NCBI RefSeq assembly: GCF_017348835.2
Contig: NZ_CP071375.1
Length of the DNA: 64,000 nucleotides
From: Escherichia coli
Lineage (GTDB): Bacteria; Pseudomonadota; Gammaproteobacteria; Enterobacterales; Enterobacteriaceae
Reading direction: 5' to 3' (one strand)
The position numbers and the translations under genes were made by a program. The notes under the pieces were generated by a model. That model ran no database searches and was not told the DNA's origin. It worked only from the letters and a program-made list of their open reading frames with translations. The stretch's first letter is position 1. Each line of letters opens with the position of its first letter. Shown here in pieces: positions 11,406 through 45,725 of the stretch.

Positions 11406-11752
11406 AGTAAAACCTGGCATTTTACTCGTCGTCTTTTGGCTTACAGGTGCGGCAGCTGCGTTCGTTCACCCCTGTCACTTACTGTTATAAGCTCCCGGGG
11501 ATTCACTCACTTGCTGCCTTCCTGCAAACCAAAATCCATAGAGTAATTTGTTAATCATAGGCCGAAGCCGTTCTAGGTTTGCGTTGCGTTTGAGGAGGTA
11601 AATTGACCGCTATCCTGCAGTGATGTTGCCAGAGTTACGCACGCGTAAAGTAAGGTAAATAACTGAGTGGTTATTTTAGGGATGTAAGCGGTCAGGAATG
11701 GCGGTGAGCGGTTGGGTAAGAATTATTCATCGGGTGGATATGTGATTGAGAT

Positions 11753-11790
11753 CACAATAAAAATGCCCCTTCGACGAATGCGTGAAGGGG
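11753..11790 (-). terminator. rho-independent terminator after hpaC
   Basis: Hairpin gcccctTCgacgaatgcgtGAaggggc followed by a T run on the reverse strand. Confidence 0.55.
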
Positions 11791-11797
11791 CTGGAGC

Positions 11798-12310
11798 TTA
11801 AATCGCAGCTTCCATTTCCAGCATCACCGGATGGAAACGGCGTTTAAAGTAGATAAGTCCGTGACCTTCTGCACTGAGGATGATGTTTTTAATCTCCACC
11901 AGATACACCAGATGTGTGCCAATTGCCTGCACATCGCGGATCTCACCTTCAAGACTGGCCAGCGAACCTTTCAGCACCGGCTGTGCCAGCGGACCTTTTT
12001 GCCAGCATGAGAGGCTAAAACGCTCTTCCATCGCCATGCCTGTCATGCCCGCGAAGTGGCGGGCCATCAGCTCCTGCTCATGATTGAGGACGTTGACGCA
12101 CAACTTACCGTTGCCCTGAAAAACCGGGTTCATCGCACTGTTGGCGTTAATGCACACCATCAGCGACGGTGGTGTATCCGTGACCGAGCAGACAGCCGTT
12201 GCCGTAATCCCGCATTGTCCGGCGTCGCCCTCGGTGGTGATAATATTTACCGCTGCCGACAGGCTGGCCATCGCGTCACGAAAGCGCAGGCGTTGTTCAT
12301 CTAATTGCAT
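11798..12310 (-). CDS. hpaC: 4-hydroxyphenylacetate 3-monooxygenase reductase component (flavin:NADH reductase)
   Basis: 170 aa MQLDEQRLRFRDAMASLSAAVNIITTEGDAGQCGITATAV..., recognised as HpaC. Confidence 0.9.
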   Translation of the reverse strand: MQLDEQRLRFRDAMASLSAAVNIITTEGDAGQCGITATAVCSVTDTPPSLMVCINANSAMNPVFQGNGKLCVNVLNHEQELMARHFAGMTGMAMEERFSLSCWQKGPLAQPVLKGSLASLEGEIRDVQAIGTHLVYLVEIKNIILSAEGHGLIYFKRRFHPVMLEMEAAI

Positions 12311-12327
12311 CTTAACCTCCTGCTGCG

Positions 12328-13890
12328 TTATTTCAGCAGCTTATCCAGCATGTTGATATCGTCGTTGTTGTGCAGGTGAGGCACAGTCCAGCCGTTCTGG
12401 TCGTATTCCGACAGGCAGCGATCAACCATCGCCATCATCTTGTCCATATTGCCGGAGCTTTGTGCCTGGCGCAGACACTGCAGGCGAATCTCATCCTGGC
12501 TACCGGAGTAGTTGATTTCATACAGTTCGTGACGACCACCAAACTCGCTGCCAATGGCATCCCACATCAGTTTGAGGATCTTGATGCGCTGGACGTGATC
12601 CATACCGTTCGAACCGCGCACATACTTCGCCAGATACTGGTCGATCTGCGGATTGTTCAGGTCACGGGCACTGGAAGGGAGATAGATCAGGCCACTGGTA
12701 ACGTTGCGTTCGATAATGTTTTTGATCTTCGCGTAGGCCATTGGTGCCAGTACGCGATAGGTTTGTAGTGCGGCATGATCCGGTAAATAAGCCCCGTTGA
12801 CCCACGGCGTCGCTTCAGAACACATCGAGTCACTCAATGCCCAGAAGGTGTTGCGCCACGCCACCACTTCACCGAGATCGGCCTGCACACCACGGAACTC
12901 CAGGGTGCCGGTACATTCGAGTGATTTTTTCAGCAGTGCCGTAATGAAGTCGAGTTTCACTGCCAGGCGCACACAGGCTTGCAGAGGATACATACGGGCG
13001 AAACCGCCTTCCATCGTCCAGCGACGGCAGCGATCAAAATCGCGGTAGATCAGTACGTTTTCCCATGGGATCAGCACGTTATCCATCACCAGAATCGCAT
13101 CATTCTCATCAAAGCGGCTGGAGAGCGGGTAGTCGTACGGCGAGCCGGTAGCACCCGCGACCATCTCATAAGAGGCGCGGGAGATTAATTTCACGCCATC
13201 GGCATCCATTGGCGCAACGAACATCAGTGCGAAGTCCGGGTTTTCGCCCATCACTTGTGCCGAGCCGAAGCCAATCATGTTGTAGTGAGTCAGCGCCGAG
13301 TTGGTGGCAACCACTTTCGCACCGCTGACGATAATCCCGGCGTCAGTCTCTTTTTCCAGCTTGATGTAAACGTCTTTCACTTTATCGGTCGGCAAATGAC
13401 GATCGATCGGTGGGTTAACAATCGCGTGGTTAAAGTAGAGGCCAGTTTCCTGAATACGGGTGTACCAGTTACGGGCGTTCTGCTCGAACTGACCGTAAAA
13501 GCCCGGATTCGCGCCCAGTGCGCAACCGAAAGCAGCTTTGTAGTCTGGGGTACGGCCCATCCAGCCATAGCTCAGGCGTGACCACTCAGCGATGGCGTCG
13601 CGTTGCTGGCACAGGTCGTCGGCACTTTTCGCCACGCGGAAGAATTTATGGGTATAGCCGCCGCTGCCGGTGTCGGTGTTCCAACACAGAGAGTCCTGCA
13701 TCTCCGGTTTGTGCAGCGCGTCGTACAGTTGGGCAACAGACGCTGCCGCATTACGAAATGCCGGATGAGTGGTGACGTCTTTCACTCGCTCGCCATAGAT
13801 ATAGATCTCGCGACCATCCTGCAGGCTTTTCAGGTACTCTTCCCCGGTGAACGGACGTTGGGTACTGGCGCGGAAATCTTCTGGTTTCAT
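12328..13890 (-). CDS. hpaB: 4-hydroxyphenylacetate 3-monooxygenase oxygenase component
   Basis: 520 aa MKPEDFRASTQRPFTGEEYLKSLQDGREIYIYGERVKDVTTHPAF..., recognised as HpaB. Confidence 0.92.
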   Translation of the reverse strand: MKPEDFRASTQRPFTGEEYLKSLQDGREIYIYGERVKDVTTHPAFRNAAASVAQLYDALHKPEMQDSLCWNTDTGSGGYTHKFFRVAKSADDLCQQRDAIAEWSRLSYGWMGRTPDYKAAFGCALGANPGFYGQFEQNARNWYTRIQETGLYFNHAIVNPPIDRHLPTDKVKDVYIKLEKETDAGIIVSGAKVVATNSALTHYNMIGFGSAQVMGENPDFALMFVAPMDADGVKLISRASYEMVAGATGSPYDYPLSSRFDENDAILVMDNVLIPWENVLIYRDFDRCRRWTMEGGFARMYPLQACVRLAVKLDFITALLKKSLECTGTLEFRGVQADLGEVVAWRNTFWALSDSMCSEATPWVNGAYLPDHAALQTYRVLAPMAYAKIKNIIERNVTSGLIYLPSSARDLNNPQIDQYLAKYVRGSNGMDHVQRIKILKLMWDAIGSEFGGRHELYEINYSGSQDEIRLQCLRQAQSSGNMDKMMAMVDRCLSEYDQNGWTVPHLHNNDDINMLDKLLK

Positions 13891-14140
13891 ATCGACCTCT
13901 ACAGTATTAATCGGAATACGATTGTTAATTTTGTGTGTTGTTTTTGTTATTCAATTGAAGCTTGCAGGGACGATTACGGGAAGACACTTTTGGGACAATG
14001 GCTGGTACTTTTCAGGTCGGGTACGGTTTTGTGATCGCGGTCGCTTTTAGCGATTTTTGACGTTACTAAATCCCCTTGCTCCAGGCGGAGAAAGGGGAAT
14101 AGCAGGTGGTGCCTGGTTTCCCGTTAAGGCTAAGGGATTT

Positions 14141-15031
14141 TCACGTCACAGGTACTTTTTTGGCGCGATAAGCACTGGGCGAGCAACCGACTAAGCGATT
14201 AAAAAAGCGCGCAAAATAAGCCGGATCCTTAAAACCGAGTTGCCAGGCAATATTGTTCACGGCGTTATCAGAAAACAGCAGCAGCCGCTTGGCTTCTCGT
14301 AACTGCCTGTCGAAAATCAACCGTTTTGGCGGACGGTTGGCAAAGCGGCGGCAGATGTCCGTGAGTCGTGATTCGGTGATATGCAGTTCGTTAGCGTAAT
14401 CCGGTACTGTCCAGTGCTGATGAAAATGGCTTTCAATCAGCATATGAAAACGCTGGAACAGTTTTAATTCTCCGCGCATCCCGCTGGCGGCATGGTCGTC
14501 GAGTTTTGCATTACGCAGCAGTAGGGTGAACACTGCCTGTGCCAGTAACGTCAGGGTGTGTTCCCGTCCAGGCAGTTGTTCCACCGATTCCCGCTCTATC
14601 AGTTGCCAATAGTGTTCCAGCGCCGCCAGTTCGTCGGGTTTATCTGCCAGTGACAGGCAAATCCCCGGCAGGCCGAAGGTTTCCCGAGTGCCCGGATAAA
14701 GAACTTCCAGCAGGGGCCAGATCAGATCTTCCCGTACCGTCAACACATGACCGTCGGCGTCAGACTCCGTAATAAACGCATGAGGTACTGACGGCGGCGT
14801 CAGGACAAACAGGGGCGCTTCCACCGAGTAGCGATGATCGTCAAGCTGTAGCTCAATCTGTCCGCTATTGAGGAAATGCATCTGAAAGTACTGTTCGTGG
14901 CGATGTGGCAGCATATGGCGGCCAAAAAAGGCCGCCATGCGGGCGAAGGACTGATAATGCACATCGTCCGTGCCCAGGCTTTCATCGTACTCTTTGCTGA
15001 TATCAATATTGGCAATCTGACGGTCACACAT
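14141..15031 (-). CDS. hpaA: AraC/XylS-family activator of hpaBC
   Basis: 296 aa with C-terminal AraC HTH; sits between hpaX and hpaB as in described hpa clusters. Confidence 0.85.
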   Translation of the reverse strand: MCDRQIANIDISKEYDESLGTDDVHYQSFARMAAFFGRHMLPHRHEQYFQMHFLNSGQIELQLDDHRYSVEAPLFVLTPPSVPHAFITESDADGHVLTVREDLIWPLLEVLYPGTRETFGLPGICLSLADKPDELAALEHYWQLIERESVEQLPGREHTLTLLAQAVFTLLLRNAKLDDHAASGMRGELKLFQRFHMLIESHFHQHWTVPDYANELHITESRLTDICRRFANRPPKRLIFDRQLREAKRLLLFSDNAVNNIAWQLGFKDPAYFARFFNRLVGCSPSAYRAKKVPVT

Positions 15032-15040
15032 CGTCGTTCC

Positions 15041-16417
15041 TTACGGGGTCGCTCGCGGACGGGAGGACTGCATTGGAATCGCCCAGATAATCCCCGCACC
15101 AATCACCAGCAGCGCGGCAACAAACCACAATCCACTGTTAAAGCTGCCGGTCAAATCTTTCAACCAGCCGATCATAAACGGACTTAACGCTGAACCAATG
15201 TTGCCAGTGGCGTTGATCACCGCAATACCGATCGCTCGTGCCCGCAGGCTGATGGACTGATCCGGTGTTGTCCAGAAAATCGCCATTGCGCTGAATGATC
15301 CGGTCGAAGCCATAATGATCCCCAGCATCTGGATCATGTTGTGATCAGTTGCCGAAGCCAGTAACCAACCTGCGGCAGCGAACAAATAAGGAAGGGCGGT
15401 GTGATGCCTTCGTTCCTGGCGGCGATCTGAGTGACGGCTCCAGTAGACCATCCCGAGAATGGTACAAATCTGCGGTACGGCGGCCAGCAGGCCGATGGTG
15501 ATATTACTGCTGCCCTGATTAAAACTTTGCAGGATCTGCGGTGTCCAGATGCTGATCGCACTAAGTGTGTTGGTCAGGCAGAAATACGCCAGGGTATACA
15601 TCATCACCACCGGAGTGAAGATCTCCCGCCACATACTGCGTTGTTGCATGGCGTGGTGGCTGATGGCTCCCTCTGGCTGAACCAGCGTCAGACGATCGTT
15701 ATCCATCATCTCTTGCAGGCATTTTTTGTCTTCTTTCGTCAGCCACTTAGCTTTGTCCGGTGAGTCATCAAGCCAGAACCACACCATGACGCCGAGTAAT
15801 ACCGACGGGAAGCCTTCCAGCAAAAACAGCCACTGCCAGCCTTTTAATGCCATGACGCCATCCAGCGACAAAATGTAGCCGGAAACGATCGATCCCAACG
15901 CTGTCGTTACCGGCATTGCCACCATAAACAAGGCGTTGGCACGGGCGCGGAAATAGGCCGGAAACCAGAAGGTTAAATACAGCAGAATGCCAGGCAGAAA
16001 GCCGGCTTCGGTAATGCCAACCAGTATACGCAGTACGTACAAGCTGGTGGGGCCAGTGGCAAACATGGTGGCAGTAGAGGCGATGCCCCAAAGCACCATG
16101 ATGGTGGCGATCCAGCGCCGCGCACCGACAATACTCAGCATAATGTTGCTGGGAATGCCGAAGATGACATAAGCGGCATAGAACAGGGTGGTAGCGAGGC
16201 CAAACATGGTGGCGCTCAGACCGAGGTCGCGTCCCATCGTGAGTCCGGCAAAGCCGATGTTGATGCGATCAAGGAACGAGAAGATAAACAGCACGAACAG
16301 AAAGACGATCAGGCGGCGAAATAGCTTCTTAATAACCGCCTGTTGTCCGGCAGTCAGCGCTTTATGCTGATTCGCCGGATCGATACTCTCCGGTATGGCA
16401 GGTGAGGTGTCGCTCAT
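15041..16417 (-). CDS. hpaX: 4-hydroxyphenylacetate permease (MFS)
   Basis: Product from MSDTSPAIPESIDPANQHKALTAGQQAVIKKLFRRLIVFLFVLFIF...; start taken at 16417. Confidence 0.88.
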   Translation of the reverse strand: MSDTSPAIPESIDPANQHKALTAGQQAVIKKLFRRLIVFLFVLFIFSFLDRINIGFAGLTMGRDLGLSATMFGLATTLFYAAYVIFGIPSNIMLSIVGARRWIATIMVLWGIASTATMFATGPTSLYVLRILVGITEAGFLPGILLYLTFWFPAYFRARANALFMVAMPVTTALGSIVSGYILSLDGVMALKGWQWLFLLEGFPSVLLGVMVWFWLDDSPDKAKWLTKEDKKCLQEMMDNDRLTLVQPEGAISHHAMQQRSMWREIFTPVVMMYTLAYFCLTNTLSAISIWTPQILQSFNQGSSNITIGLLAAVPQICTILGMVYWSRHSDRRQERRHHTALPYLFAAAGWLLASATDHNMIQMLGIIMASTGSFSAMAIFWTTPDQSISLRARAIGIAVINATGNIGSALSPFMIGWLKDLTGSFNSGLWFVAALLVIGAGIIWAIPMQSSRPRATP

Positions 16418-16462
16418 TTTTCTTCCTCTAATGGGATTTTTGTAGGGTACGACAAGGTTTAT

Positions 16463-16591
<129 letters not shown>

Positions 16592-17380
16592 TTAATACAC
16601 GCCGGGCTTAATCGCTGTAGCCTGCGCGCCAAACCGTGCTGCCAGCGCTTCAGCGGCGCGGGCGAGCAGGGTGGTGTCAACGCCGACGGCGACAAACAGC
16701 GCGCCCAGTTCCAGATAGCGTTTTGCCAGTTGCTCATTGGCGATCAGGATCCCTGGCGCTTTACCCGCTTCGCGGATCTGCACGATCGCCTGCTCAATGG
16801 CGGCCTGTACTTCCGGGTGCTGCGGATTACCGGCATAACCCATATCGGCGCTCAGATCCGCCGGGCCGATAAACACGCCGTCGACGCCTTCCACGTCCAG
16901 AATCTGCGGTAAGTTCTTCATTGCCTCACGCGTTTCGATCTGCACCAGCACGCACATTTGATCGTTGGCTTTTTGCAGGTAATCAGGAATGCGATTCCAG
17001 CGCGAGGCGCGAGCCAGCGCACTGCCCACACCGCGAATACCGGCGGGGGGATAACGGGTGGCGCGTACCGCTTCACGGGCTTCGTCGGCGTTTTGTACCA
17101 TCGGCACCAGCAAGGTTTGTGTGCCGACATCCAGCAGTTGTTTGATTTGCACCGGATCGTTCCACGACGGACGTACCACCGGCTGGCTGGGGTAGGGCGC
17201 AATCGCCTGTAGCTGGGTGAGCACGGTTTGCACGTTATTCGGCGCGTGCTCACCGTCGATCAATAACCAGTCGAATCCTGCTCCGGCCAGTAACTCTGCG
17301 CTGTAGCTGCTACTTAGCCCCAGCCATAATCCGATCTGCGGGCGGCCTGCTTTCAGCGCCGCTTTAAAACTGTTTTCCAT
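16592..17380 (-). CDS. hpaI: 4-hydroxy-2-oxoheptanedioate aldolase
   Basis: 262 aa from [48 protein letters not shown]... Confidence 0.9.
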
Positions 17381-17390
17381 CGTTCTCTCC

Positions 17391-18194
17391 TTAAACAAAG
17401 CGGCAGCTAATGGAGCCCATGTTGCCGTAATCGACGTGGAAGGTATCGCCCTTACGCGCCGGAACCGGGCGGGTGAACGAACCGCCGAGAATGATTTGCC
17501 CGGCTTCCAGTTGTACGTCATACGGTGCGAGTTTGTTCGCCAGCCAGGCCACGCCGTTTGCCGGATGATTTAGCACACCAGCGGCGACGCCAGTTTCTTC
17601 AATCACGCCATTGCGATACATCAGGGCGGAGATCCAACGCAGATCCAGTTCGTCTGGTTTGATCGGACGACCGCCGAGGATCACTCCGGCGTTGGCGGCG
17701 TTATCAGAAATGGTGTCGAACACTTTGCGCGGGCGCTGGGTTTCCGGATCGATGTTGTGGCAGCGGGCGTCGATCAGCTCCAGCGCCGGGATCACGTAGT
17801 CCGTGGCGTTGTAGACGTCGAACAGCGTGCAGTTTGGCCCACGCAGCGGTTTTGCCAGCACAAAAGCCAGCTCCACTTCAATGCGCGGCACGATAAAGCG
17901 ATCGGTCGGGATATCGCTGCCATCGTGGAAGAACATGTCGTCCAGCAATGCACCGTAATCTGGCTCGCTGATTTGTGAGCTGGCCTGCATCGCTTTCGAG
18001 GTCAGGCCGATTTTGTGGCCTTTCAGCGTGCGGCCTTCGGCGATTTTCAGTCGGACCCATTCGCGCTGTACGGCGTAGGCGTCTTCAATGGTGATCTCCG
18101 GGTAATCCAGCGAGATCGCGCGGATCTGTTCACGCTGTTTTTCTGCCTGATCCAGACGCTGGGCGATCAGGGTGTGGGTGTGTTTATCGAACAT
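17391..18194 (-). CDS. hpaH: 2-oxo-hept-4-ene-1,7-dioate hydratase
   Basis: Product from [43 protein letters not shown]...; the start may instead be the upstream ATG at 18212. Confidence 0.85.
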
Positions 18195-18261
18195 AGCGAT
18201 ATCCTGTGGCATTGCCGGATGCGGCTGCGCCTTATCATCCAGCCTGGAAGCTGGTGCAAAT

Positions 18262-18642
18262 TTATTTAAACAACGCGTGTACGTTGTTCTGTTTGAAATT
18301 CAACGTCGGGTGCAGCTCTGCAATCTCAAATGAAAGCGCCAGGTAACGGCTCTCCATCAGTGAGGCGAAGTGCGTTTTAATCAGATCAAACAGCATTTCG
18401 CCTACTTCCTGACGGCTTTCCAGACTGCGCCCGCTGCCGATTTTTAGCGTCATATGCACAAAGGCGTAATCGTGCTTGCCATCAGCCATTTGCCAGGTAT
18501 CGATCCAGTGTGCCCGGCTACGTATTCCCCCAAGCGGAAAAATCCCCGTCGCCGCCAGTGCGGTGTTAACACTGGCAAACAGCTCAGGTAAGCGGGCTTC
18601 TTGACGAATATTTTCAGTACATTCCACGATAAAGTGCGGCAT
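18262..18642 (-). CDS. hpaF: 5-carboxymethyl-2-hydroxymuconate isomerase
   Basis: 126 aa [46 protein letters not shown]... Confidence 0.9.
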
Positions 18643-18651
18643 AAAACGTCC

Positions 18652-19503
18652 TTACGCGGGCAGCGGGAAAACAGCGTTAACCTGACCGGTGCCAGAGCTT
18701 GGGAACAGCTCGGTAATAAACTCCACCTTGCCGTCGTATTTATCCCAGCCGAGCATCCCCAGCAGCATCACCGTGTCGTGCATATTGCCTTCGCCGTAGC
18801 AGTAGTCGGCGTACTCCGGCAGCATATTGCAGAACTCTTTGAACTGGCCTTCGCGCCACAACTTCACCACGCGCTCGTCCATCTGGCGGTCGAACTCGCG
18901 GGTGTAGCTGTTCATCCCTTCTTCTGCACGCTGATCGTCAATAAAGCGGTGCGATAACGAACCGCTGGCAAGGACCGCCACGGTGCCGTCGTACTGTTCG
19001 ATCGCTTTCAGAATCGCTTCGCCCAGCTTGCGGCTGTCGGCAAAATCGTGAACCGTGCAGAAAGCCGAAATGGAGACCACTTTGAAGTGCTTGTCTTCAT
19101 TCATGTAGCGCATCGGCACCAGCGTGCCGTATTCCAGTTTCAGGCTGGGAATGTTGTGCGCTTTTGCCCGCACGCCGAGCTTTAAGGCTTCAACGGCAAT
19201 AAGCTGCCCCAACTCCGGGTTGCCCTCGTAGTTGTAGGTCATGTCACGAATAAAATGCGGCAGCTCGTTGCTGGTGTAGACGCCTTCAAAATGGTCTGCA
19301 CAGTTGATGTGATAAGCACTGTTGACCAGCCAGTGAGTATCGAAAACAATAATGGTATCGACGCCCATTTCCCGGCAACGCTTGCTGATCTCTTTATGCC
19401 CGTCGATCGCGCCCTGGCGGCAACCGTGGTTTTTTCCTGGCAGTTCAGAGAGATACATCGACGGTACGTGCGTGATCTTGGCGGCTAACGCTAACTTACC
19501 CAT
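18652..19503 (-). CDS. hpaD: 3,4-dihydroxyphenylacetate 2,3-dioxygenase (extradiol)
   Basis: 283 aa MGKLALAAKITHVPSMYLSELPGKNHGCRQGAIDGHKEISKRCREMGVDT... Confidence 0.9.
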   Translation of the reverse strand: MGKLALAAKITHVPSMYLSELPGKNHGCRQGAIDGHKEISKRCREMGVDTIIVFDTHWLVNSAYHINCADHFEGVYTSNELPHFIRDMTYNYEGNPELGQLIAVEALKLGVRAKAHNIPSLKLEYGTLVPMRYMNEDKHFKVVSISAFCTVHDFADSRKLGEAILKAIEQYDGTVAVLASGSLSHRFIDDQRAEEGMNSYTREFDRQMDERVVKLWREGQFKEFCNMLPEYADYCYGEGNMHDTVMLLGMLGWDKYDGKVEFITELFPSSGTGQVNAVFPLPA

Positions 19504-19504
19504 A

Positions 19505-20971
19505 TCAGACTCCCCATTTCGGAATTGGATGGTCGCCCATGGAAATGCAGACGTTCTTCATTTCCGCGAACACTTCGAAGCTGTACTCACCGCCTTCACG
19601 CCCGGTGCCGGAGGCTTTTACGCCGCCAAATGGCTGGCGCAGGTCACGCACGTTCTGGGTGTTGACGAACACCATGCCAGCTTCAATGCCACGCGCCAGG
19701 CGTAACACTTTGCTGACATCCTGTGTCCAGATGTACGACGCGAGGCCGTACTCCACGTCGTTTGCCAGACGTAAGCCTTCGGCTTCGTCTTTAAACGGCA
19801 GCAGGCAGGCGACCGGCCCGAAAATCTCTTCCTGGGCGACTCGCATACGGTTATCAACGTCTGCCAGCACGGTTGGGCGCAGGAAGTTGCCGCCTTTCAG
19901 GTGCGCAGGCAGGTCGGACGGTTTATCCGGGCCGCCCGCCAGCAGGGTTGCGCCTTCTTCAATGCCGAGACGGATATAGCCGGAGACTTTTTCCCAGTGC
20001 TGCTGGCTGATAAGCGCCCCAACCTGGGTATTCGGATCGTTCGGATCGCCCACGCGCAGACGGTTGGCGCGTTCGGCAAAGCGTTTAACGAATTCCGGGT
20101 AGATGCTTTGCTGAATAAAGATGCGCGAACCGGCGGTGCAGCGCTCGCCGTTGATCGAGAAGATGGTGAACAGGGCGGCGTCCAGCGCGCGTTCAATATC
20201 GGCATCTTCAAAAATCAGCACCGGCGATTTACCGCCCAGTTCCATGGAGTATTTTTTCAGCCCGGCGTTTTTCATGATGTTGCGCCCGGTGGCCGTACCG
20301 CCGGTGAACGACACGGCACGTACGTCATGATGACGAACCAGCGCATCCCCTGCGGTTGCGCCGTAGCCCTGTACCACGTTCAGCACGCCTGCCGGAATAC
20401 CGGCTTCCAGCGCCAGCTCACCCAGGCGGTCAGCGGTCAGCGGGGAGAGTTCCGACATTTTCAGTACCGCGGTATTGCCCAGCGCCAGACACGGCGCGAC
20501 CTTCCATGTGGCGGTCATAAACGGTACGTTCCACGGCGATACCAGCGCACAAACGCCCACCGGCTGCACCAGCGTGTAGTTGAGCATCTTGTCGTCAACC
20601 GGATAGGTCTTGCCGTTCATCTGCTGGCAGACTTCCGCGAAAAATTCAAAGTTGTGGGAAGCGCGTGGGATCAACACATTTTTGGTCTGATGGATCGGCA
20701 GGCCGGTGTCCGCGGTTTCCATCGCGGCGATCTCTGGCACGTTCTGGTCGATCAGATCGCCCAGACGGCGCATCAGGCGCGCACGCTCTTTCATCGGCAG
20801 ATTGGCCCATTTCGGGAACGCCTCTTTCGCTGCCGCTACCGCCTGATTGATCTCCGCTTCACCGCCAGAGGCCACATCCGCCAGCACTTCACCCGTTGCC
20901 GGATTGGTGGTCTGGAAGTAGTCGTTACCTGCAACATTTTTGCCGTTGATCCAATGATTTACTTTTTTCAT
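19505..20971 (-). CDS. hpaE: 5-carboxymethyl-2-hydroxymuconate semialdehyde dehydrogenase
   Basis: 488 aa aldehyde dehydrogenase family; position within the hpa meta-cleavage operon. Confidence 0.9.
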   Translation of the reverse strand: MKKVNHWINGKNVAGNDYFQTTNPATGEVLADVASGGEAEINQAVAAAKEAFPKWANLPMKERARLMRRLGDLIDQNVPEIAAMETADTGLPIHQTKNVLIPRASHNFEFFAEVCQQMNGKTYPVDDKMLNYTLVQPVGVCALVSPWNVPFMTATWKVAPCLALGNTAVLKMSELSPLTADRLGELALEAGIPAGVLNVVQGYGATAGDALVRHHDVRAVSFTGGTATGRNIMKNAGLKKYSMELGGKSPVLIFEDADIERALDAALFTIFSINGERCTAGSRIFIQQSIYPEFVKRFAERANRLRVGDPNDPNTQVGALISQQHWEKVSGYIRLGIEEGATLLAGGPDKPSDLPAHLKGGNFLRPTVLADVDNRMRVAQEEIFGPVACLLPFKDEAEGLRLANDVEYGLASYIWTQDVSKVLRLARGIEAGMVFVNTQNVRDLRQPFGGVKASGTGREGGEYSFEVFAEMKNVCISMGDHPIPKWGV

Positions 20972-22257
20972 TTCGCTGTTTCCTCACTCACAATTCGGTT
21001 CACCAGGCAGCCCACGCCTTCTACTTCCACCACTACTTCATCGCCAGGCACCACGTCAGATAAGCCTTTTGGTGTGCCGGTGGCGATCATGTCGCCCGGA
21101 TTCAGGGTCATAAATTCGCTTAAGTAGGCGATCAGGAAGGGCACGCTGAAGATCAGATCGGCGGTGGTGCCTTGCTGGCGTAACTCGCCGTTGACGAAGG
21201 TGCGAAGGGTCAGATTATGCGGGTCCGGGATCGCCTCTTTCGGCACGATGGTTGAAAGCATCGGCGTCAGTCCGTCGCGGCTTTTTACCCGCAGGTTAGG
21301 GCGGTAGTAGTTTTCCAGATAGTCGCGAATGGCGTAGTCGTTACACACGGTGTAGCCCGCGACATAATCCATGGCATCGGCTTCGCTGACGTTACGCGCC
21401 TGTTTGCCAATAACTACCACCAGCTCCGCTTCATAGTGCATGTATTCAATATTGTTTGGACGCACGGAGGTCTGGTTATCGCCAGTGAGGGTATTTGGCG
21501 CTTTCAGGAACACCAGCGGTTCTTCCGGTGGCTTAAATTCCAGTTCGCTGGCGTGGTCGGCGTAGTTCAGGCCGAGGGCAAACAGCGTGCCGTGCGGGTG
21601 TGGCTGCGTTGGGAAGCTCTTGCGCGTGGTCACTTCACGTTCGTCCACTACCGGATTTTCCAGCGGCGGGAAACCTTCTGCGAGAACACGAACGCGATCG
21701 CCTGGCTGTATTTCCACGCGCGCCTGTGGCGTGCCGAGCAGAATGGCATCGCCTGGATTCAGTGTGGCAAATTCGCTCAGGGCGCTCAGCAACTGCGCGG
21801 CGTTACGTTGTAAATCGGCGGTATTCCAGTGATCGGCAGGACGCCCGTTGATCTCGGTATAGATGGTCAGATTATCGACATTGCTGAGAGCCACGGTTTC
21901 GCCAATGGGGCAGAATCCATCACGACATTTTGCTTTGATTGCCGGGCGGTAAAAGCTCTCTTCCGGCAGGCTGACGTCGTTAGCCAGCGCATATCCGGCG
22001 ATGTACTCTGCCGCATCTTCTTCACGTACTTTCGTCGCCGTTTTTCCCACAATCAGCGCAACAGTCGCACCGCTCAGTACCTTTTCACCCTGTGGAAAGG
22101 GAATCGGTTCACCGCAACCAATCACCGTATTGCGCGGTTTAATAAACCAGACCGCAGTTTTAGGCGGGGCTTTGTAGGGGGATTGCTGGAACGCGTCCTG
22201 CCATGCATCAAGCTGGCTGCGATGGTTCAACGCTACGGCGAAGATAGTGCCTTTCAT
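20968..22257 (-). CDS. hpaG: bifunctional 5-oxopent-3-ene-1,2,5-tricarboxylate decarboxylase / 2-hydroxyhepta-2,4-diene-1,7-dioate isomerase
   Basis: 429 aa from MKGTIFAVALNH...; tandem FAH-type domains; overlaps hpaE by 4 nt. Confidence 0.88.
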   Translation of the reverse strand: MKGTIFAVALNHRSQLDAWQDAFQQSPYKAPPKTAVWFIKPRNTVIGCGEPIPFPQGEKVLSGATVALIVGKTATKVREEDAAEYIAGYALANDVSLPEESFYRPAIKAKCRDGFCPIGETVALSNVDNLTIYTEINGRPADHWNTADLQRNAAQLLSALSEFATLNPGDAILLGTPQARVEIQPGDRVRVLAEGFPPLENPVVDEREVTTRKSFPTQPHPHGTLFALGLNYADHASELEFKPPEEPLVFLKAPNTLTGDNQTSVRPNNIEYMHYEAELVVVIGKQARNVSEADAMDYVAGYTVCNDYAIRDYLENYYRPNLRVKSRDGLTPMLSTIVPKEAIPDPHNLTLRTFVNGELRQQGTTADLIFSVPFLIAYLSEFMTLNPGDMIATGTPKGLSDVVPGDEVVVEVEGVGCLVNRIVSEETAK

Positions 22258-22282
22258 TACCACTCCTCGGATTCGATCATCT

Positions 22283-22306
22283 TAATCATTAATATGTTAA
22301 TGATTA
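22283..22306. promoter_or_regulatory. near-palindromic operator-like site TAATCATTA-N6-TAATGATTA in the divergent hpaG/hpaR promoter region; likely HpaR operator
   Basis: 9-bp inverted arms seen in sequence between the divergent hpaG and hpaR starts. Confidence 0.5.
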
Positions 22307-22527
22307 CTTTTATTCCCGATTGCGTAGTTTGGCAAAAGTAAGTGATGTAAATGTGATCTAATTAACAAACTATTTACATTTAAAGATAATAAAACATTAA
22401 ATATCAGTAAGTTAATAAAATATCATCAATTTTGATAAAATCAGGAATTGAGGGACAGCGCAGTCCCGGTAACGTGACGATTAACTGTTTCTATATTAAT
22501 GATTTTGAATTTTTCAGGGGAAAGATA

Positions 22528-22974
22528 ATGCACGACTCACTAACCATTGCGTTGCTCCAGGCGCGAGAAGCGGCGATGAGTTATTTTCGCCCAATCGTTA
22601 AACGGCATAATTTGACTGAACAACAGTGGCGCATCGTGCGTATTCTGGCGGAAAGCCCATCAATGGATTTTCACGATCTGGCGTATCGCGCCTGCATTTT
22701 GCGCCCAAGCCTGACCGGGATCCTTACGCGGATGGAACGCGACGGTTTAGTGTTGCGATTAAAGCCAATCAATGATCAGCGGAAGCTCTATATCTCGCTA
22801 ACCAAAGAGGGGCAGGCGCTGTATAACCGCGCCCAGACACAGATTGAAGAAGCCTATCGGCAGATTGAAGCTCAGTTTACTGCCGAGAAAATGCAACAGT
22901 TAACCCATCTGTTAGAGGAATTTATTGCTCTGGGCAATTCCCGACAAGAAGACATCCCGGGCGATAATGAATAA
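22528..22974 (+). CDS. hpaR: MarR-family repressor of the hpa meta operon
   Basis: 148 aa from MHDSLTIALLQAREAAMSYFRPIVKRHNLTEQQWRIVRILAESP...; winged-helix MarR fold. Confidence 0.85.
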   Translation: MHDSLTIALLQAREAAMSYFRPIVKRHNLTEQQWRIVRILAESPSMDFHDLAYRACILRPSLTGILTRMERDGLVLRLKPINDQRKLYISLTKEGQALYNRAQTQIEEAYRQIEAQFTAEKMQQLTHLLEEFIALGNSRQEDIPGDNE

Positions 22975-23035
22975 CTTTTTAGTATCTGATAACCAGCGCC
23001 TGGTTTTTCCATGGATGGCGGGTTACACCTTTTCA

Positions 23036-23062
23036 TAAAGTTTTTGCTTTCCAGGTCGAAAA
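23036..23062 (+). promoter_or_regulatory. putative sigma-28 (FliA) promoter of tsr
   Basis: TAAAGTTT-N11-GTCGAAAA versus consensus TAAAGTTT-N11-GCCGATAA, about 30 nt upstream of the tsr ATG. Confidence 0.5.
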
Positions 23063-23092
23063 TCTTGCATCGGTCCACAGGAAAGAGAAACC

Positions 23093-24757
23093 ATGTTAAA
23101 ACGTATCAAGATCGTGACCAGCTTACTGCTGGTTTTGGCCGTTTTTGGCCTTTTACAACTGACATCAGGCGGTCTGTTCTTTAATGCCTTAAAGAATGAC
23201 AAAGAAAATTTCACTGTTTTACAAACCATTCGTCAGCAGCAATCCACGCTGAATGGCAGCTGGGTCGCGTTGTTGCAGACGCGTAACACCCTCAACCGCG
23301 CGGGTATCCGCTACATGATGGATCAGAATAATATTGGTAGCGGTTCAACCGTTGCTGAGCTGATGCAGAGTGCCAGTATTTCGCTGAAACAGGCGGAAAA
23401 AAACTGGGCAGATTACGAAGCGTTGCCGCGTGACCCGCGTCAGAGCACCGCCGCAGCGGCAGAGATCAAACGTAATTACGATATTTATCACAATGCGCTG
23501 GCGGAGCTGATCCAACTGTTAGGTGCAGGCAAAATCAACGAGTTCTTTGATCAGCCGACCCAGGGATATCAGGACGGTTTCGAGAAGCAGTATGTGGCTT
23601 ACATAGAGCAAAACGATCGGCTCTATGATATCGCCGTCAGCGATAACAATGCCTCCTACAGCCAGGCGATGTGGATTCTGTTGGGCGTGATGATCGTCGT
23701 ACTGGCGGTCATCTTCGCCGTCTGGTTCGGTATTAAAGCCTCGTTGGTAGCGCCAATGAATCGCCTGATTGACAGCATTCGTCATATTGCAGGCGGCGAT
23801 CTGGTGAAACCGATTGAGGTGGATGGCTCTAATGAGATGGGGCAACTGGCAGAGAGTTTGCGCCATATGCAGGGAGAGCTGATGCGTACCGTCGGTGATG
23901 TGCGCAACGGGGCCAATGCCATCTATAGCGGTGCCAGCGAAATCGCCACCGGCAATAACGATCTCTCTTCGCGCACCGAGCAACAGGCCGCTTCGCTGGA
24001 AGAGACGGCAGCCAGCATGGAGCAACTGACCGCAACGGTGAAACAGAACGCCGAGAATGCGCGCCAGGCCAGCCACCTGGCGTTAAGTGCTTCTGAAACG
24101 GCGCAACGCGGCGGCAAAGTGGTAGATAACGTGGTGCAGACTATGCGTGATATCTCCACCAGTTCGCAGAAAATCGCCGATATTATCAGCGTAATTGACG
24201 GCATTGCCTTCCAGACCAATATTCTGGCTTTGAACGCGGCGGTTGAAGCAGCGCGTGCGGGTGAGCAAGGACGTGGTTTTGCGGTGGTTGCGGGAGAAGT
24301 GCGTAATCTGGCCCAGCGTAGCGCCCAGGCGGCTCGTGAAATTAAAAGCCTGATTGAAGACTCGGTGGGGAAAGTGGATGTTGGCTCTACGCTGGTCGAA
24401 AGCGCCGGGGAAACAATGGCGGAGATTGTCAGTGCCGTGACCCGCGTGACGGACATTATGGGCGAAATAGCTTCTGCTTCTGATGAGCAGAGCCGTGGTA
24501 TCGATCAGGTTGGCTTAGCGGTTGCTGAGATGGACCGGGTAACTCAACAGAACGCCGCGCTGGTGGAAGAATCTGCCGCTGCCGCCGCCGCGCTGGAAGA
24601 GCAGGCCAGTCGCCTGACCGAAGCTGTGGCAGTGTTCCGGATTCAGCAACAGCAGCAACAGCAGCGTGAAACATCGGCTGTGGTAAAAACCGTGACGCCA
24701 GCTACGCCGCGTAAAATGGCAGTGGCAGATAGCGGGGAGAACTGGGAAACGTTTTAA
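23093..24757 (+). CDS. tsr: methyl-accepting chemotaxis protein I (serine chemoreceptor), ends NWETF
   Basis: 554 aa; full-length match to Tsr; C-terminal glutamine run is 7 residues. Confidence 0.92.
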
Positions 24758-24769
24758 TCGCCATAAAAA

Positions 24770-24799
24770 TGCCCGATAAGCAAAATGTTATCGGGCATA
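24770..24799. terminator. hairpin between convergent tsr and lgoT (atgcccgataa-loop-ttatcgggcat)
   Basis: 11-bp inverted repeat. Confidence 0.5.
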
Positions 24800-24805
24800 G
24801 GGAGT

Positions 24806-26167
24806 TTAATCTTTACGCGGGTCGTTGATCGGCTGACGAACCAGGAAGATGTACGCCAGTGCTCCCGCTGCGGTGACGCAACCGCAAATGATTAGTGCCA
24901 GACGGAATGAGTGGGTTGTATCAACAATAAAACCAGTAATGATCGGCGCGAAAGAGGCGCAGATGAAGCTGGCAAAGTTCTGGATACTGCCCACCGACGC
25001 AGTCATGCGAGAAGCAACTGCGACGTGGATCAAGCCCCAGCAGGATGTTCCGGCAAAGTGAATACAGAACAGTGCCATGCCAATCAGCAGAACCGCCATC
25101 ATGGATGTTGTCGCTTGTGGTACTATCAGCGTAAAGGCGGCAGAACAGAACATCCCGGCAATAATGCAGATCTTACGGCTTTTAATCGGAGCCATTCCCC
25201 CTTTGACCAGCCAGTCAGTAACGTAACCGTTGACCAGCATCCCGGCAGCCCCAAACAGGAAAGGGATAGCCGCCATCAACCCTGTGCTTTTTAAATCCAG
25301 GTTATAGGCTGTTTGCAGGTAACCAGGAAGCCAGGCCAGATACAGCCACGCAGTGTAGTTGATGCCACTGAATCCGAGCATCATTCCCCACATTGTGCGG
25401 TTACGGAACAGGCTGCGCCATTCGGCAAAACTGAGCGGATCTCGGCGTGCATTGACGCTACCTGCATTGAGATAAGCTTGTTCAACGGCAGTCAGTTCTA
25501 CGTGCTCGCGGTTGCGATAGAGCATATACCAGCCGATGGCGAGAAAAATCCCCAGTACACCAATGGTAATAAACATCCCGCGCCAGCCCATCACCAGCAT
25601 CATCGCCGCCAGAATCGGTGGGCTTACGGCAACGCCAATGGTAGAAGCTGCGTTGAAGAAGCCCATCGGGCGTCCGCGCTCTTTGATGTTGAACCAGTCG
25701 TTAATGACTTTTACACCGCATGGGTTCATCGGCGCTTCACCAATCCCCATACCGATACGCACCAACACGAACTGCGTAAAGCTGTGCACCATGCCAGACA
25801 TGGCCTGGAACAGTGACCAGAAGAACATCCCCAGTCCCAGCATCAGGCGTGGGCCTTTACGATCCAATAGTGGGCCGCAAGGAAGTTGCGCAATGCCGTA
25901 AGCGAGTGAAAACACGGAGAGCAAAGCGCCGATTTCGGTGGCACTTAATCCCAATTCTTCACGAATCGTTAAATTTGCTACCGACAGCGAACTGCGGTCG
26001 AGATAATTGATTACCGCCGCAAAAAATAATAACAACATGGCGGTGGTTTGAATGCGTTTAATTCGGGTACTGCGTTGAACTAATCCATCTGGTGGCACGG
26101 GAATATCTGCCGACGAAGATGGAGTAAATGAAGAACGCGGATCGAGGGTGATATTTTCTTTTTCCAC
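24806..26167 (-). CDS. lgoT: L-galactonate:H+ symporter (MFS)
   Basis: 453 aa MEKENITLDPRSSFTPSSSADIPVPPDGLVQRSTRIKRIQTTAMLLLFFAAV..., recognised as YjjL/LgoT. Confidence 0.88.
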   Translation of the reverse strand: MEKENITLDPRSSFTPSSSADIPVPPDGLVQRSTRIKRIQTTAMLLLFFAAVINYLDRSSLSVANLTIREELGLSATEIGALLSVFSLAYGIAQLPCGPLLDRKGPRLMLGLGMFFWSLFQAMSGMVHSFTQFVLVRIGMGIGEAPMNPCGVKVINDWFNIKERGRPMGFFNAASTIGVAVSPPILAAMMLVMGWRGMFITIGVLGIFLAIGWYMLYRNREHVELTAVEQAYLNAGSVNARRDPLSFAEWRSLFRNRTMWGMMLGFSGINYTAWLYLAWLPGYLQTAYNLDLKSTGLMAAIPFLFGAAGMLVNGYVTDWLVKGGMAPIKSRKICIIAGMFCSAAFTLIVPQATTSMMAVLLIGMALFCIHFAGTSCWGLIHVAVASRMTASVGSIQNFASFICASFAPIITGFIVDTTHSFRLALIICGCVTAAGALAYIFLVRQPINDPRKD

Positions 26168-45708: not shown

Positions 45709-45725
45709 TTTGCCCTTCGTAGGCA

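Follow-up and report, generated by a model that had tools for sequence, protein, structure and literature searches.

Genetic, biochemical and structural studies of the hpa (alias hpc) gene cluster for 4-hydroxyphenylacetate (4-HPA) catabolism go back to the 1980s-1990s. In the gut, 4-HPA and 3-HPA arise from the breakdown of tyrosine and phenylalanine. The hpa cluster of E. coli W was reportedly described by Prieto et al. in 1996, and the hpc cluster of E. coli C is said to have been described by Roper et al. in 1993. From the published work on W, C and B, the following scheme would apply. HpaX would import 4-HPA, and either 4-HPA or 3-HPA would be sensed by the AraC-family protein HpaA, which would switch on hpaBC. 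HpaC would then use NAD(P)H to supply reduced flavin, with which, together with O2, HpaB would convert 4-HPA into 3,4-dihydroxyphenylacetate (homoprotocatechuate), and this product would relieve the repression exerted by the MarR-family protein HpaR at hpaGEDFHI. Ring cleavage by HpaD, dehydrogenation by HpaE, isomerisation by HpaF, decarboxylation and isomerisation by HpaG, hydration by HpaH and aldol cleavage by HpaI would finally deliver pyruvate and succinic semialdehyde. The pathway and its regulation, as well as the W cluster itself (ATCC 9637 / 11105), have been summarised (PMC7180172).

The DNA analysed here, referred to as the window, is a stretch of 64,000 nucleotides of E. coli (contig NZ_CP071375.1). 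Its positions 11798-22974 almost certainly represent the known chromosomal hpa cluster for 4-HPA catabolism, intact and in the usual place between btsT and tsr. An earlier note on this DNA had called the cluster well described, and rightly so: it is ordinary in E. coli, already known and of low value as a discovery. The exception is hpaF, which exists in the species in two strongly diverged forms.

Gene content and predicted function

The interval extends exactly from the stop codon of hpaC to that of hpaR, with hpaC, B, A, X, I, H, F, D, E and G on the minus strand and the divergent hpaR on the plus strand (Table 1). This order, in which hpaR diverges from hpaGEDFHI-hpaX-hpaA-hpaBC, is common to W, REL606 (B) and C. 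The open reading frame map places all eleven genes where the earlier note had them; their starts follow the RefSeq annotation of PE164, a near-identical record, and were confirmed by translation. Every gene has an ATG start, a single terminal stop and zero internal stops, the protein lengths are those of W, and all eleven products match their own NCBIfam equivalog models end to end and above the curated cut-offs. No stop, frameshift or truncation was found across the eleven translated frames in comparison with W, REL606 and C, which bears out the previous description of a complete, intact cluster with genes of expected lengths. The short overlaps also mentioned there hold for hpaE/hpaG (4 bp), which is the sole overlap; the wording was overstated for the remaining tight junctions, which are gaps of 1-17 bp.

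Table 1. Features of the hpa locus and its borders, with window positions and best protein-family matches.
Feature	Position	Strand	Description	Model match
ERIC-like dispersed intergenic repeat	11416-11552	.	between btsT and conserved btsT upstream region	
intrinsic terminator after hpaC	11756-11791	-	GC-rich hairpin then U run	
hpa-specific segment	11757-23030	.	11,274 bp in place of ~95 bp K-12-private sequence	
hpaC	11798-12310	-	NAD(P)H-flavin reductase component, 4-HPA 3-monooxygenase, 170 aa	NF012030, 385.6 bits (cut-off 315), 1-170/170
hpaB	12328-13890	-	oxygenase component, 4-HPA 3-monooxygenase, 520 aa	TIGR02310, 1106 bits (cut-off 885), full length
hpaA-hpaB intergenic	13891-14140	-	250 bp	
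hpaA	14141-15031	-	AraC/XylS-family activator of hpaBC, 296 aa	TIGR02297, 386.7 bits (cut-off 274.65)
hpaX	15041-16417	-	MFS 4-HPA permease, 458 aa	TIGR02332, 894 bits (cut-off 615.4)
BIME, three REP palindromes	16458-16595	.	between hpaI and hpaX	
hpaI	16592-17380	-	262 aa	TIGR02311, 433.8 bits (cut-off 368.8)
hpaH	17391-18194	-	2-oxo-hept-4-ene-1,7-dioate hydratase, 267 aa	TIGR02312, 464.7 bits (cut-off 351.5)
hpaF	18262-18642	-	126 aa	NF011605, 263.5 bits (cut-off 215)
hpaD	18652-19503	-	homoprotocatechuate 2,3-dioxygenase, 283 aa	TIGR02298, 546.8 bits (cut-off 315.95)
hpaE	19505-20971	-	CHMS dehydrogenase, 488 aa	TIGR02299, 739.3 bits (cut-off 638.35)
hpaG	20968-22257	-	bifunctional OPET decarboxylase / HHDD isomerase, 429 aa	NF011750, 976.7 bits (cut-off 811)
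hpaG/hpaR divergent control region	22258-22527	.		
hpaR	22528-22974	+	MarR-family repressor of hpaGEDFHI and itself, 148 aa	TIGR02337, 201.1 bits (cut-off 121.2)

The N-terminal proline of HpaF (residue 2, after Met1), a residue whose role is established for the tautomerase superfamily, is kept. The translation of HpaB carries Arg379, which is required for the use of 3-HPA (PMC7201708). From the sequence we infer that the genes are expressed here and enable growth on both 4-HPA and 3-HPA; HpaF, for example, is the same protein as in REL606, which has been shown to grow on 4-HPA (PMC7201708). The source strain is thus predicted to be able to use both compounds, and its HpaBC would be a hydroxylase of broad specificity, such as is widely employed in biocatalysis.

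Control regions, repeats and rare variants

In the hpaG/hpaR control region, positions 22283-22306 form a perfect palindrome (TAATCATTAA-TATG-TTAATGATTA), positions 22352-22367 resemble a CRP site (TGTGATCTAATTAACA), and a half-site, ATTAATGATT, occupies 22495-22504. These would presumably include the operator and the CRP site, a putative assignment in line with the literature. Both the palindrome and the CRP-like site are 100% conserved with W and REL606, and in the ~130 bp next to hpaG the identity among the window, W, REL606 and PE164 is 100%. As a candidate HpaR operator, the palindrome agrees with the TTAA-N4-TTAA pattern given for E. coli W (PMC7180172). By analogy with the W work, the HpaA-activated hpaBC promoter would lie in the hpaA-hpaB intergenic region (summarised in PMC7180172), where mismatches to W are as low as elsewhere in the cluster, with 4-5 per 200-bp bin. 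The hairpin that follows hpaC reaches -18 kcal/mol (z = -4.1) and was equalled by none of 200 shuffles. A consensus scan for promoters and terminators gave a background level of hits (8 observed vs 8.3 expected) and is of descriptive use only.

Two families of dispersed repeats are found at the locus. The REP element previously noticed between hpaX and hpaI is confirmed and comprises three palindromes, whose inverted repeats GCCGGATGCG / CTTATCCGGCCTAC occur in three copies; these repeats likely account for the median of 21 places per genome matched by the cluster query. The second repeat, named ERIC-like for its resemblance to the ERIC consensus, is missing from K-12 at the same site. It has a median of 8 copies per genome, and copies with at least 95% identity occur in 2056 genomes, about as many as carry hpa. 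A permissive Rfam scan of positions 9000-25000 for unannotated RNA elements returned only a partial match to naRNA4 (REP-derived) at the BIME and a weak match to V_AS5 at the ERIC-like repeat.

Three missense changes of the window do not occur in W, REL606 or C, namely HpaB R94C, HpaD D104V and HpaG R417C. HpaB R94C, carried by only 2 of 2069 genomes and located at a non-conserved residue, is one of three differences (with N478S and D499N) from the crystallised E. coli HpaB (6QYH/6EB0). The C-terminal 100 residues of HpaG equal the sequence of PDB 1GTT except for R417C, which is likewise rare and at a non-conserved position (we take 1OTG and 1GTT to be E. coli C HpcD and HpcE, respectively). 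Both changes were rejected as likely lesions, since these positions vary among solved homologues. Only HpaD D104V, which could not be set aside in this way, affects a conserved (acidic) position, where 73 of 75 orthologues have D or E; the change is rare in E. coli (6/2032 genomes), and the six carriers are closely related. Private to the window is a 1-bp deletion at 22450/22451, located 78 bp upstream of the hpaR start codon and shared by 0 of 5426 genomes.

These variants raise the alternative that the cluster is structurally complete yet functionally impaired, either cryptic or decaying, through HpaD D104V and/or the deletion between hpaG and hpaR. The near-invariance of the acidic residue, the confinement of D104V to one small group of relatives and the uniqueness of the deletion would agree with it, as would the state of the neighbouring genes: some local gene decay or sequencing error is present, because frameshifts affect both pac and yjiR in this lineage. 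Nevertheless, the deletion spares the fully conserved part with the putative operator and CRP site; it falls in the half of the spacer that is variable, W, REL606 and PE164 already showing several differences there. In addition, the other two window-specific substitutions affect variable positions, and the hpa genes themselves are uninterrupted. We therefore regard an impaired cluster as very improbable and favour the reading of an intact one.

Two forms of hpaF in the species

Substantial divergence from described hpa clusters, which the earlier note had held to speak against its reading, exists for hpaF relative to W and C only, and not relative to the B cluster, which is just as well described. 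The HpaF protein of the window equals that of REL606 and has 84% identity to the W and PDB 1OTG sequences. Compared with W, 77 of 381 nucleotides and 20 of 126 amino acids differ, and 19 amino acids differ from E. coli C. The two E. coli alleles share 79.8% nucleotide identity, with dS of about 1.2 and dN/dS of 0.08, and by these values they are as far apart as orthologues of different genera. This divergence is limited to a cassette of ~430 bp, formed by the hpaH-hpaF spacer and the whole hpaF ORF, both edges of which coincide with gene borders; outside hpaF, the identity of the cluster to W, REL606 and C is ~98-99.7%.

Both forms are present near 50:50 in the species, with 1083 genomes at least 95% identical to the window (B type), 987 at ~80% (W/C type) and only one genome with an intermediate. 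The W/C-type allele is 93-98% identical to hpaF of Pseudocitrobacter and groups there, while for the B-type allele of the window the best 80 loci in a search of one genome from each of 100,044 species include no relative above 82% from outside Escherichia. One possible explanation, put forward tentatively, is that both alleles have been kept for a long time as a balanced polymorphism; another is a cassette exchanged repeatedly, whose two versions would differ functionally at the isomerase step. No description of the dimorphism was found in the literature on hpaF / hpcD, which is no proof that there is none. The dimorphism calls for caution in pan-genome association studies in which genes are divided at ~95% identity.

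Chromosomal site, strain background and described clusters

As in W, B (REL606) and C, the cluster lies between btsT (yjiY) and tsr; in K-12 MG1655, btsT adjoins tsr without it, so that the site occupancy previously described for K-12, B, C and W is upheld. The junctions were placed by pairwise alignment with the K-12 btsT-tsr spacer. On the left, K-12 homology stops after a CRP-like palindrome (11741-11756), and on the right it restarts at 23031, with a sigma-28-like tsr promoter following closely at 23036-23062. A mobile island was considered and rejected, no integrase, transposase or tRNA gene being present at the borders. The GC content of 54.5% in the cluster, vs 52.0% in the rest of the window, is diagnostic neither way. 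Among 5426 complete E. coli genomes, 2019 (~37%) carry the cluster at full length, and in 2752 the site is empty, as in K-12.

The earlier note had considered hpa a strain marker and, together with pac, a pointer to a W-like or ATCC 11105-like background. That the two genes mark such a background is suggested by the gene order mdtM-rpn-yjiR-yjiS-pac-yjiA-yjiX-btsT-hpa-tsr, which is the same as in W, and by the presence in REL606 and C of other genes where pac stands. However, neither is diagnostic, because 2019 and 1067 of the 5426 genomes carry hpa and pac, respectively, and hpa can thus serve only as a weak marker. Moreover, the penicillin G acylase gene pac, although at its W position next to yjiA, is split here into ORFs 5416-7098 and 6992-7957 by a run of G10 vs G9, and a pac in the same G10 state is annotated as 'frameshifted' in strain A29. 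The window is 98.3-98.7% identical to W, its hpaF is of the B and not the W/C type, and it lacks the 43-bp REP-like insert of the W hpaH-hpaF spacer; PE164, in turn, is apart by only two single-base indels in 64 kb. A W background is already contradicted at the nucleotide level, and we consider the probability that hpa and pac indicate it here to be minimal. Both hpa and pac are too common for their presence or absence to identify a lineage; allele-level features such as the hpaF type, REP or spacer indels and rare SNPs (HpaB R94C, HpaD D104V) are far more informative.

With respect to the individual described systems, W has the same 11 genes, order, orientation and btsT-tsr site, and the same pac-containing left flank. 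Its HpaC, HpaX, HpaH, HpaE and HpaR proteins and its hpaG-proximal control region are identical to those of the window, HpaB, A, I, D and G differ by 1-3 aa, and the overall identity is ~98.5%. The hpaH-hpaF spacer measures 110 bp in W vs 67 bp here. The B strain REL606 has the same genes and site, identical HpaF, HpaC, HpaH and HpaR proteins and an hpaF that is 99% identical in DNA. It differs in the hpaX-hpaI spacer (123 bp vs 174 bp), in its left flank, where hsdRMS-mrr replaces pac, and in HpaB, with Cys379 and growth on 4-HPA only, whereas the window has Arg379, like BL21(DE3) (PMC7201708). The hpc cluster of E. coli C shares genes and site as well as identical HpaA, HpaC, HpaX, HpaH and HpaR proteins, but it has a W-type hpaF and no pac. 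The identity of HpaH in W, REL606 and C is maintained although 28-37 synonymous differences exist. The cluster is 100% identical, bar one gap, to the annotated hpa clusters of strains PE164 and F2_81. In the pig isolate PE164 (NZ_CP114128) all 11 coding sequences are identical, and the comparison gives 0 mismatches and two 1-bp indels over 1-34974, and 100% identity over 34623-64000; the two indels are the pac run, G9 in PE164, and one extra C in PE164 at window position 22450/51.

Gene content, control region and predicted pathway

Eleven ORFs fill the interval between btsT and tsr, ten of them collinear on the minus strand and one divergent on the plus strand; their best matches among annotated hpa clusters are those of PE164 (a pig isolate, NZ_CP114128) and F2_81, with 100% identity bar one gap; many E. 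coli genomes match. Gene starts were taken from the annotation of the matching hpa record and verified by translation. All 11 genes begin with ATG, contain only the terminal stop and match those of strain W exactly in length. In addition, each product matches its own NCBIfam equivalog model end to end and above the curated cut-off (HpaC, HpaB-2, HpaA, HpaX, HpaI, HpaH, CHM isomerase, HpaD_Fe, HpaE, HpaG and HpaR). The ORF list, translation and family models thus bear out an earlier note, which had described a complete 11-gene cluster for 4-hydroxyphenylacetate (4-HPA) catabolism with expected lengths, and its coordinates were exact. The REP element that it placed between hpaX and hpaI is also real, being a BIME of three REP palindromes. 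The short overlaps that it mentioned were slightly overstated: hpaE and hpaG do overlap, by 4 bp, but the remaining tight junctions are gaps of 1-17 bp. The identification of the cluster is correct, and the cluster itself is already well known.

Outside hpaF, each protein differs by 0-3 aa from those of W, REL606 (a B strain) and C. Three substitutions are absent from all three references. HpaB R94C is found in 2 of 2069 E. coli genomes, at a position where other solved members of the family have Val or Ile, and HpaG R417C lies where homologues have Ala, Ser or Pro. HpaD D104V is carried by 6 of 2032 E. coli genomes (G3/10, A29, PE164, TUM1881, EC2001 and F2_81), whereas 73 of 75 orthologues have Asp or Glu here; among the three, only this change deserves a functional check. 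HpaB Arg379 is retained in the window; REL606 has Cys at this position and is unable to use 3-HPA (PMC7201708).

The mechanism of the pathway has been established in W, C and B (PMC7180172 gives a summary), and both expression and growth on 4-HPA are predicted for the present copy. HpaX would take up 4-HPA and HpaA, of the AraC/XylS family, would activate hpaBC. HpaC would then provide reduced flavin to HpaB, whose product would be homoprotocatechuate. Repression of hpaGEDFHI by the MarR-family protein HpaR would subsequently be relieved, and the ring-cleavage product would be converted into pyruvate and succinic semialdehyde via HpaD, HpaE, HpaF, HpaG, HpaH and HpaI. Nearest to hpaG, 130 bp of the control region, including a perfect palindrome and a CRP-like site, are 100% identical in the window, W and REL606. 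The spacer between hpaG and hpaR also lacks a C, 78 bp before the hpaR start codon, that W, REL606 and PE164 have; TTGCAGGG thereby becomes TTGAGGG. This deletion was found in 0 of 5426 complete genomes, and reflects either a mutation private to this genome or an error in the assembly.

Features of the hpa region and its flanks (window positions)
Feature	Position	Detail
yjiR	3309-4723 (minus)	ORFs 3309-3896 and 3893-4723
pac	5416-7957	ORFs 5416-7098 and 6992-7957
G10 run in pac	7055-7064	G9 in PE164
ERIC-like repeat	11416-11552	137 bp
CRP-like palindrome, left limit of K-12 homology	11741-11756	TGTGATTGAGATCACA
Hairpin + U run	11756-11791	-18 kcal/mol, z = -4.1
hpa-specific segment	11757-23030	11,274 bp, against about 95 bp private to K-12
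hpa cluster	11798-22974	hpaC stop to hpaR stop
BIME, hpaX-hpaI	16458-16595	three REP palindromes
Divergent hpaF block	about 18220-18645	hpaH-hpaF spacer and entire ORF
HpaD codon 104	19192-19194	D104V
Perfect palindrome	22283-22306	TAATCATTAA-N4-TTAATGATTA
CRP-like site	22352-22367	within hpaG-proximal 130 bp
Missing C	22450/22451	hpaG-hpaR spacer
Sigma-28-like tsr promoter	23036-23062	TAAAGTTT-N11-GTCGAAAA
tsr	23093-24757	554 aa
Tandem repeat, yjjW-yjjV	45723-46143	period about 101 bp

Junctions and distribution

On the left, the gene order is mdtM, an rpn-family gene, yjiR, yjiS, pac, yjiA, yjiX and btsT, and on the right tsr, lgoT, lgoR, lgoD, opgB and onwards. Within these flanks, yjiR, whose product is a regulator of the PLP-dependent aminotransferase family, is broken into two ORFs; it is annotated as 'frameshifted' in PE164 and is intact in W and C. 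The serine chemoreceptor gene tsr varies slightly in length: K-12 and REL606 encode 551 aa, the window, W and C 554 aa. Offset self-matches in the comparison with PE164 also brought to notice a tandem repeat of roughly four copies, 94-96% alike, between yjjW and yjjV.

In K-12 MG1655, btsT and tsr adjoin, separated by a 377 bp spacer. Alignment to this spacer showed that homology extends on the left to a CRP-like palindrome, ending at 11756, and restarts at 23031, just 5' of the sigma-28-like tsr promoter; these two limits define the hpa-specific segment. Directly after hpaC, a hairpin followed by a U run looks like the hpaBC terminator, judging from its predicted fold. No integrase, transposase or tRNA gene was seen at the cluster borders, and GC content is 54.5% in the cluster, compared with 52.0% elsewhere in the window. 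A dispersed, ERIC-like intergenic repeat, absent from K-12 at this site, separates btsT from its conserved upstream region. The median copy number of the repeat is 8 per genome, and since copies of at least 95% identity are present in 2056 genomes, a number similar to that of hpa-positive genomes, this copy appears to travel with the hpa haplotype.

Genome comparison places the cluster between btsT and tsr in W, REL606 and C, and confirms its absence from K-12, as had been proposed. These locations agree with the classical statement that 4-HPA is used by B, C and W but not by K-12 (PMC7180172). Among 5426 complete E. coli genomes, 2019 carry a full-length cluster, 2071 have hpaF, and 2752 show the K-12-like empty junction; because the occupied and the empty state are both very common, the presence of hpa says little about lineage.

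Strain background and the state of pac

Together with the penicillin G acylase gene pac (present in 1067 of the 5426 genomes), the hpa cluster had been read as pointing to a W-like or ATCC 11105-like background. The pac-containing gene order is indeed that of W, whereas REL606 has hsdRMS-mrr and C other genes at that position. At the sequence level, however, this assignment is unsupported: the window shares only 98.3-98.7% identity with W, while PE164 shows 0 mismatches, being 100% identical over 34623-64000 and differing by two single-base indels within 1-34974. One of these indels is the C missing upstream of hpaR. The other is a G10 run that splits pac, so that the copy is broken here, or else the run is a homopolymer sequencing error; the same pac state in strain A29 is annotated as 'frameshifted'.

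Two hpaF alleles

The two-allele cassette of hpaF, which encodes CHM isomerase, is the sole item that might repay a short follow-up. Across E. coli the gene is bimodal, its two sharply distinct forms standing close to 50:50: identity to the window allele is at least 95% in 1083 genomes and about 80% in 987, and a single genome falls in between. The divergence is confined to a cassette the size of a gene, window 18220-18645 (for comparison, L003 22452-22942 and loci L028, L031, L032 and L074), and ends sharply at the hpaD/hpaF border. The window/B and W/C alleles share 79.8% nucleotide identity, with dS of about 1.2, dN of 0.09 and dN/dS of 0.08, values that indicate purifying selection on both. 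One locus with an E. coli label, L074, whose flanking genes are about 95% identical, is a recombinant, having a W-like spacer and a window-like ORF.

For a wider comparison, 100,044 species were scanned at one genome each, and the 80 best-matching loci were considered. Among them, three Pseudocitrobacter hpaF genes are 97.9%, 93.2% and 92.7% identical to the W/C allele, which thus groups with that genus, and outside Escherichia nothing exceeds 81.6% identity to the window allele. The neighbouring hpaE and hpaD of Pseudocitrobacter are 95-97% identical to E. coli at two loci (L032 and L028) and about 92% at the third (L031), compared with about 83% across the same stretch for Salmonella arizonae and a Citrobacter locus (L011). 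These identities suggest a fairly recent exchange of the cluster between genera.

No description of the dimorphism was found in the literature under hpaF or hpcD. In a pan-genome study of mastitis, 'hpcD' appears on its own among the accessory genes associated with severity (PMC11390585); splitting of the alleles would give exactly this lone-'hpcD' pattern and may be its cause. Relative to the described clusters, REL606 encodes exactly the HpaF protein of the window, while hpaF of W differs at 77 of 381 nt and 20 of 126 aa, and that of C at 19 aa; W and C also have 43 additional REP-like bases in the hpaH-hpaF spacer. It is with the W/C type that the sequence of PDB 1OTG, the crystallised CHM isomerase (HpcD of E. 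coli C), agrees.
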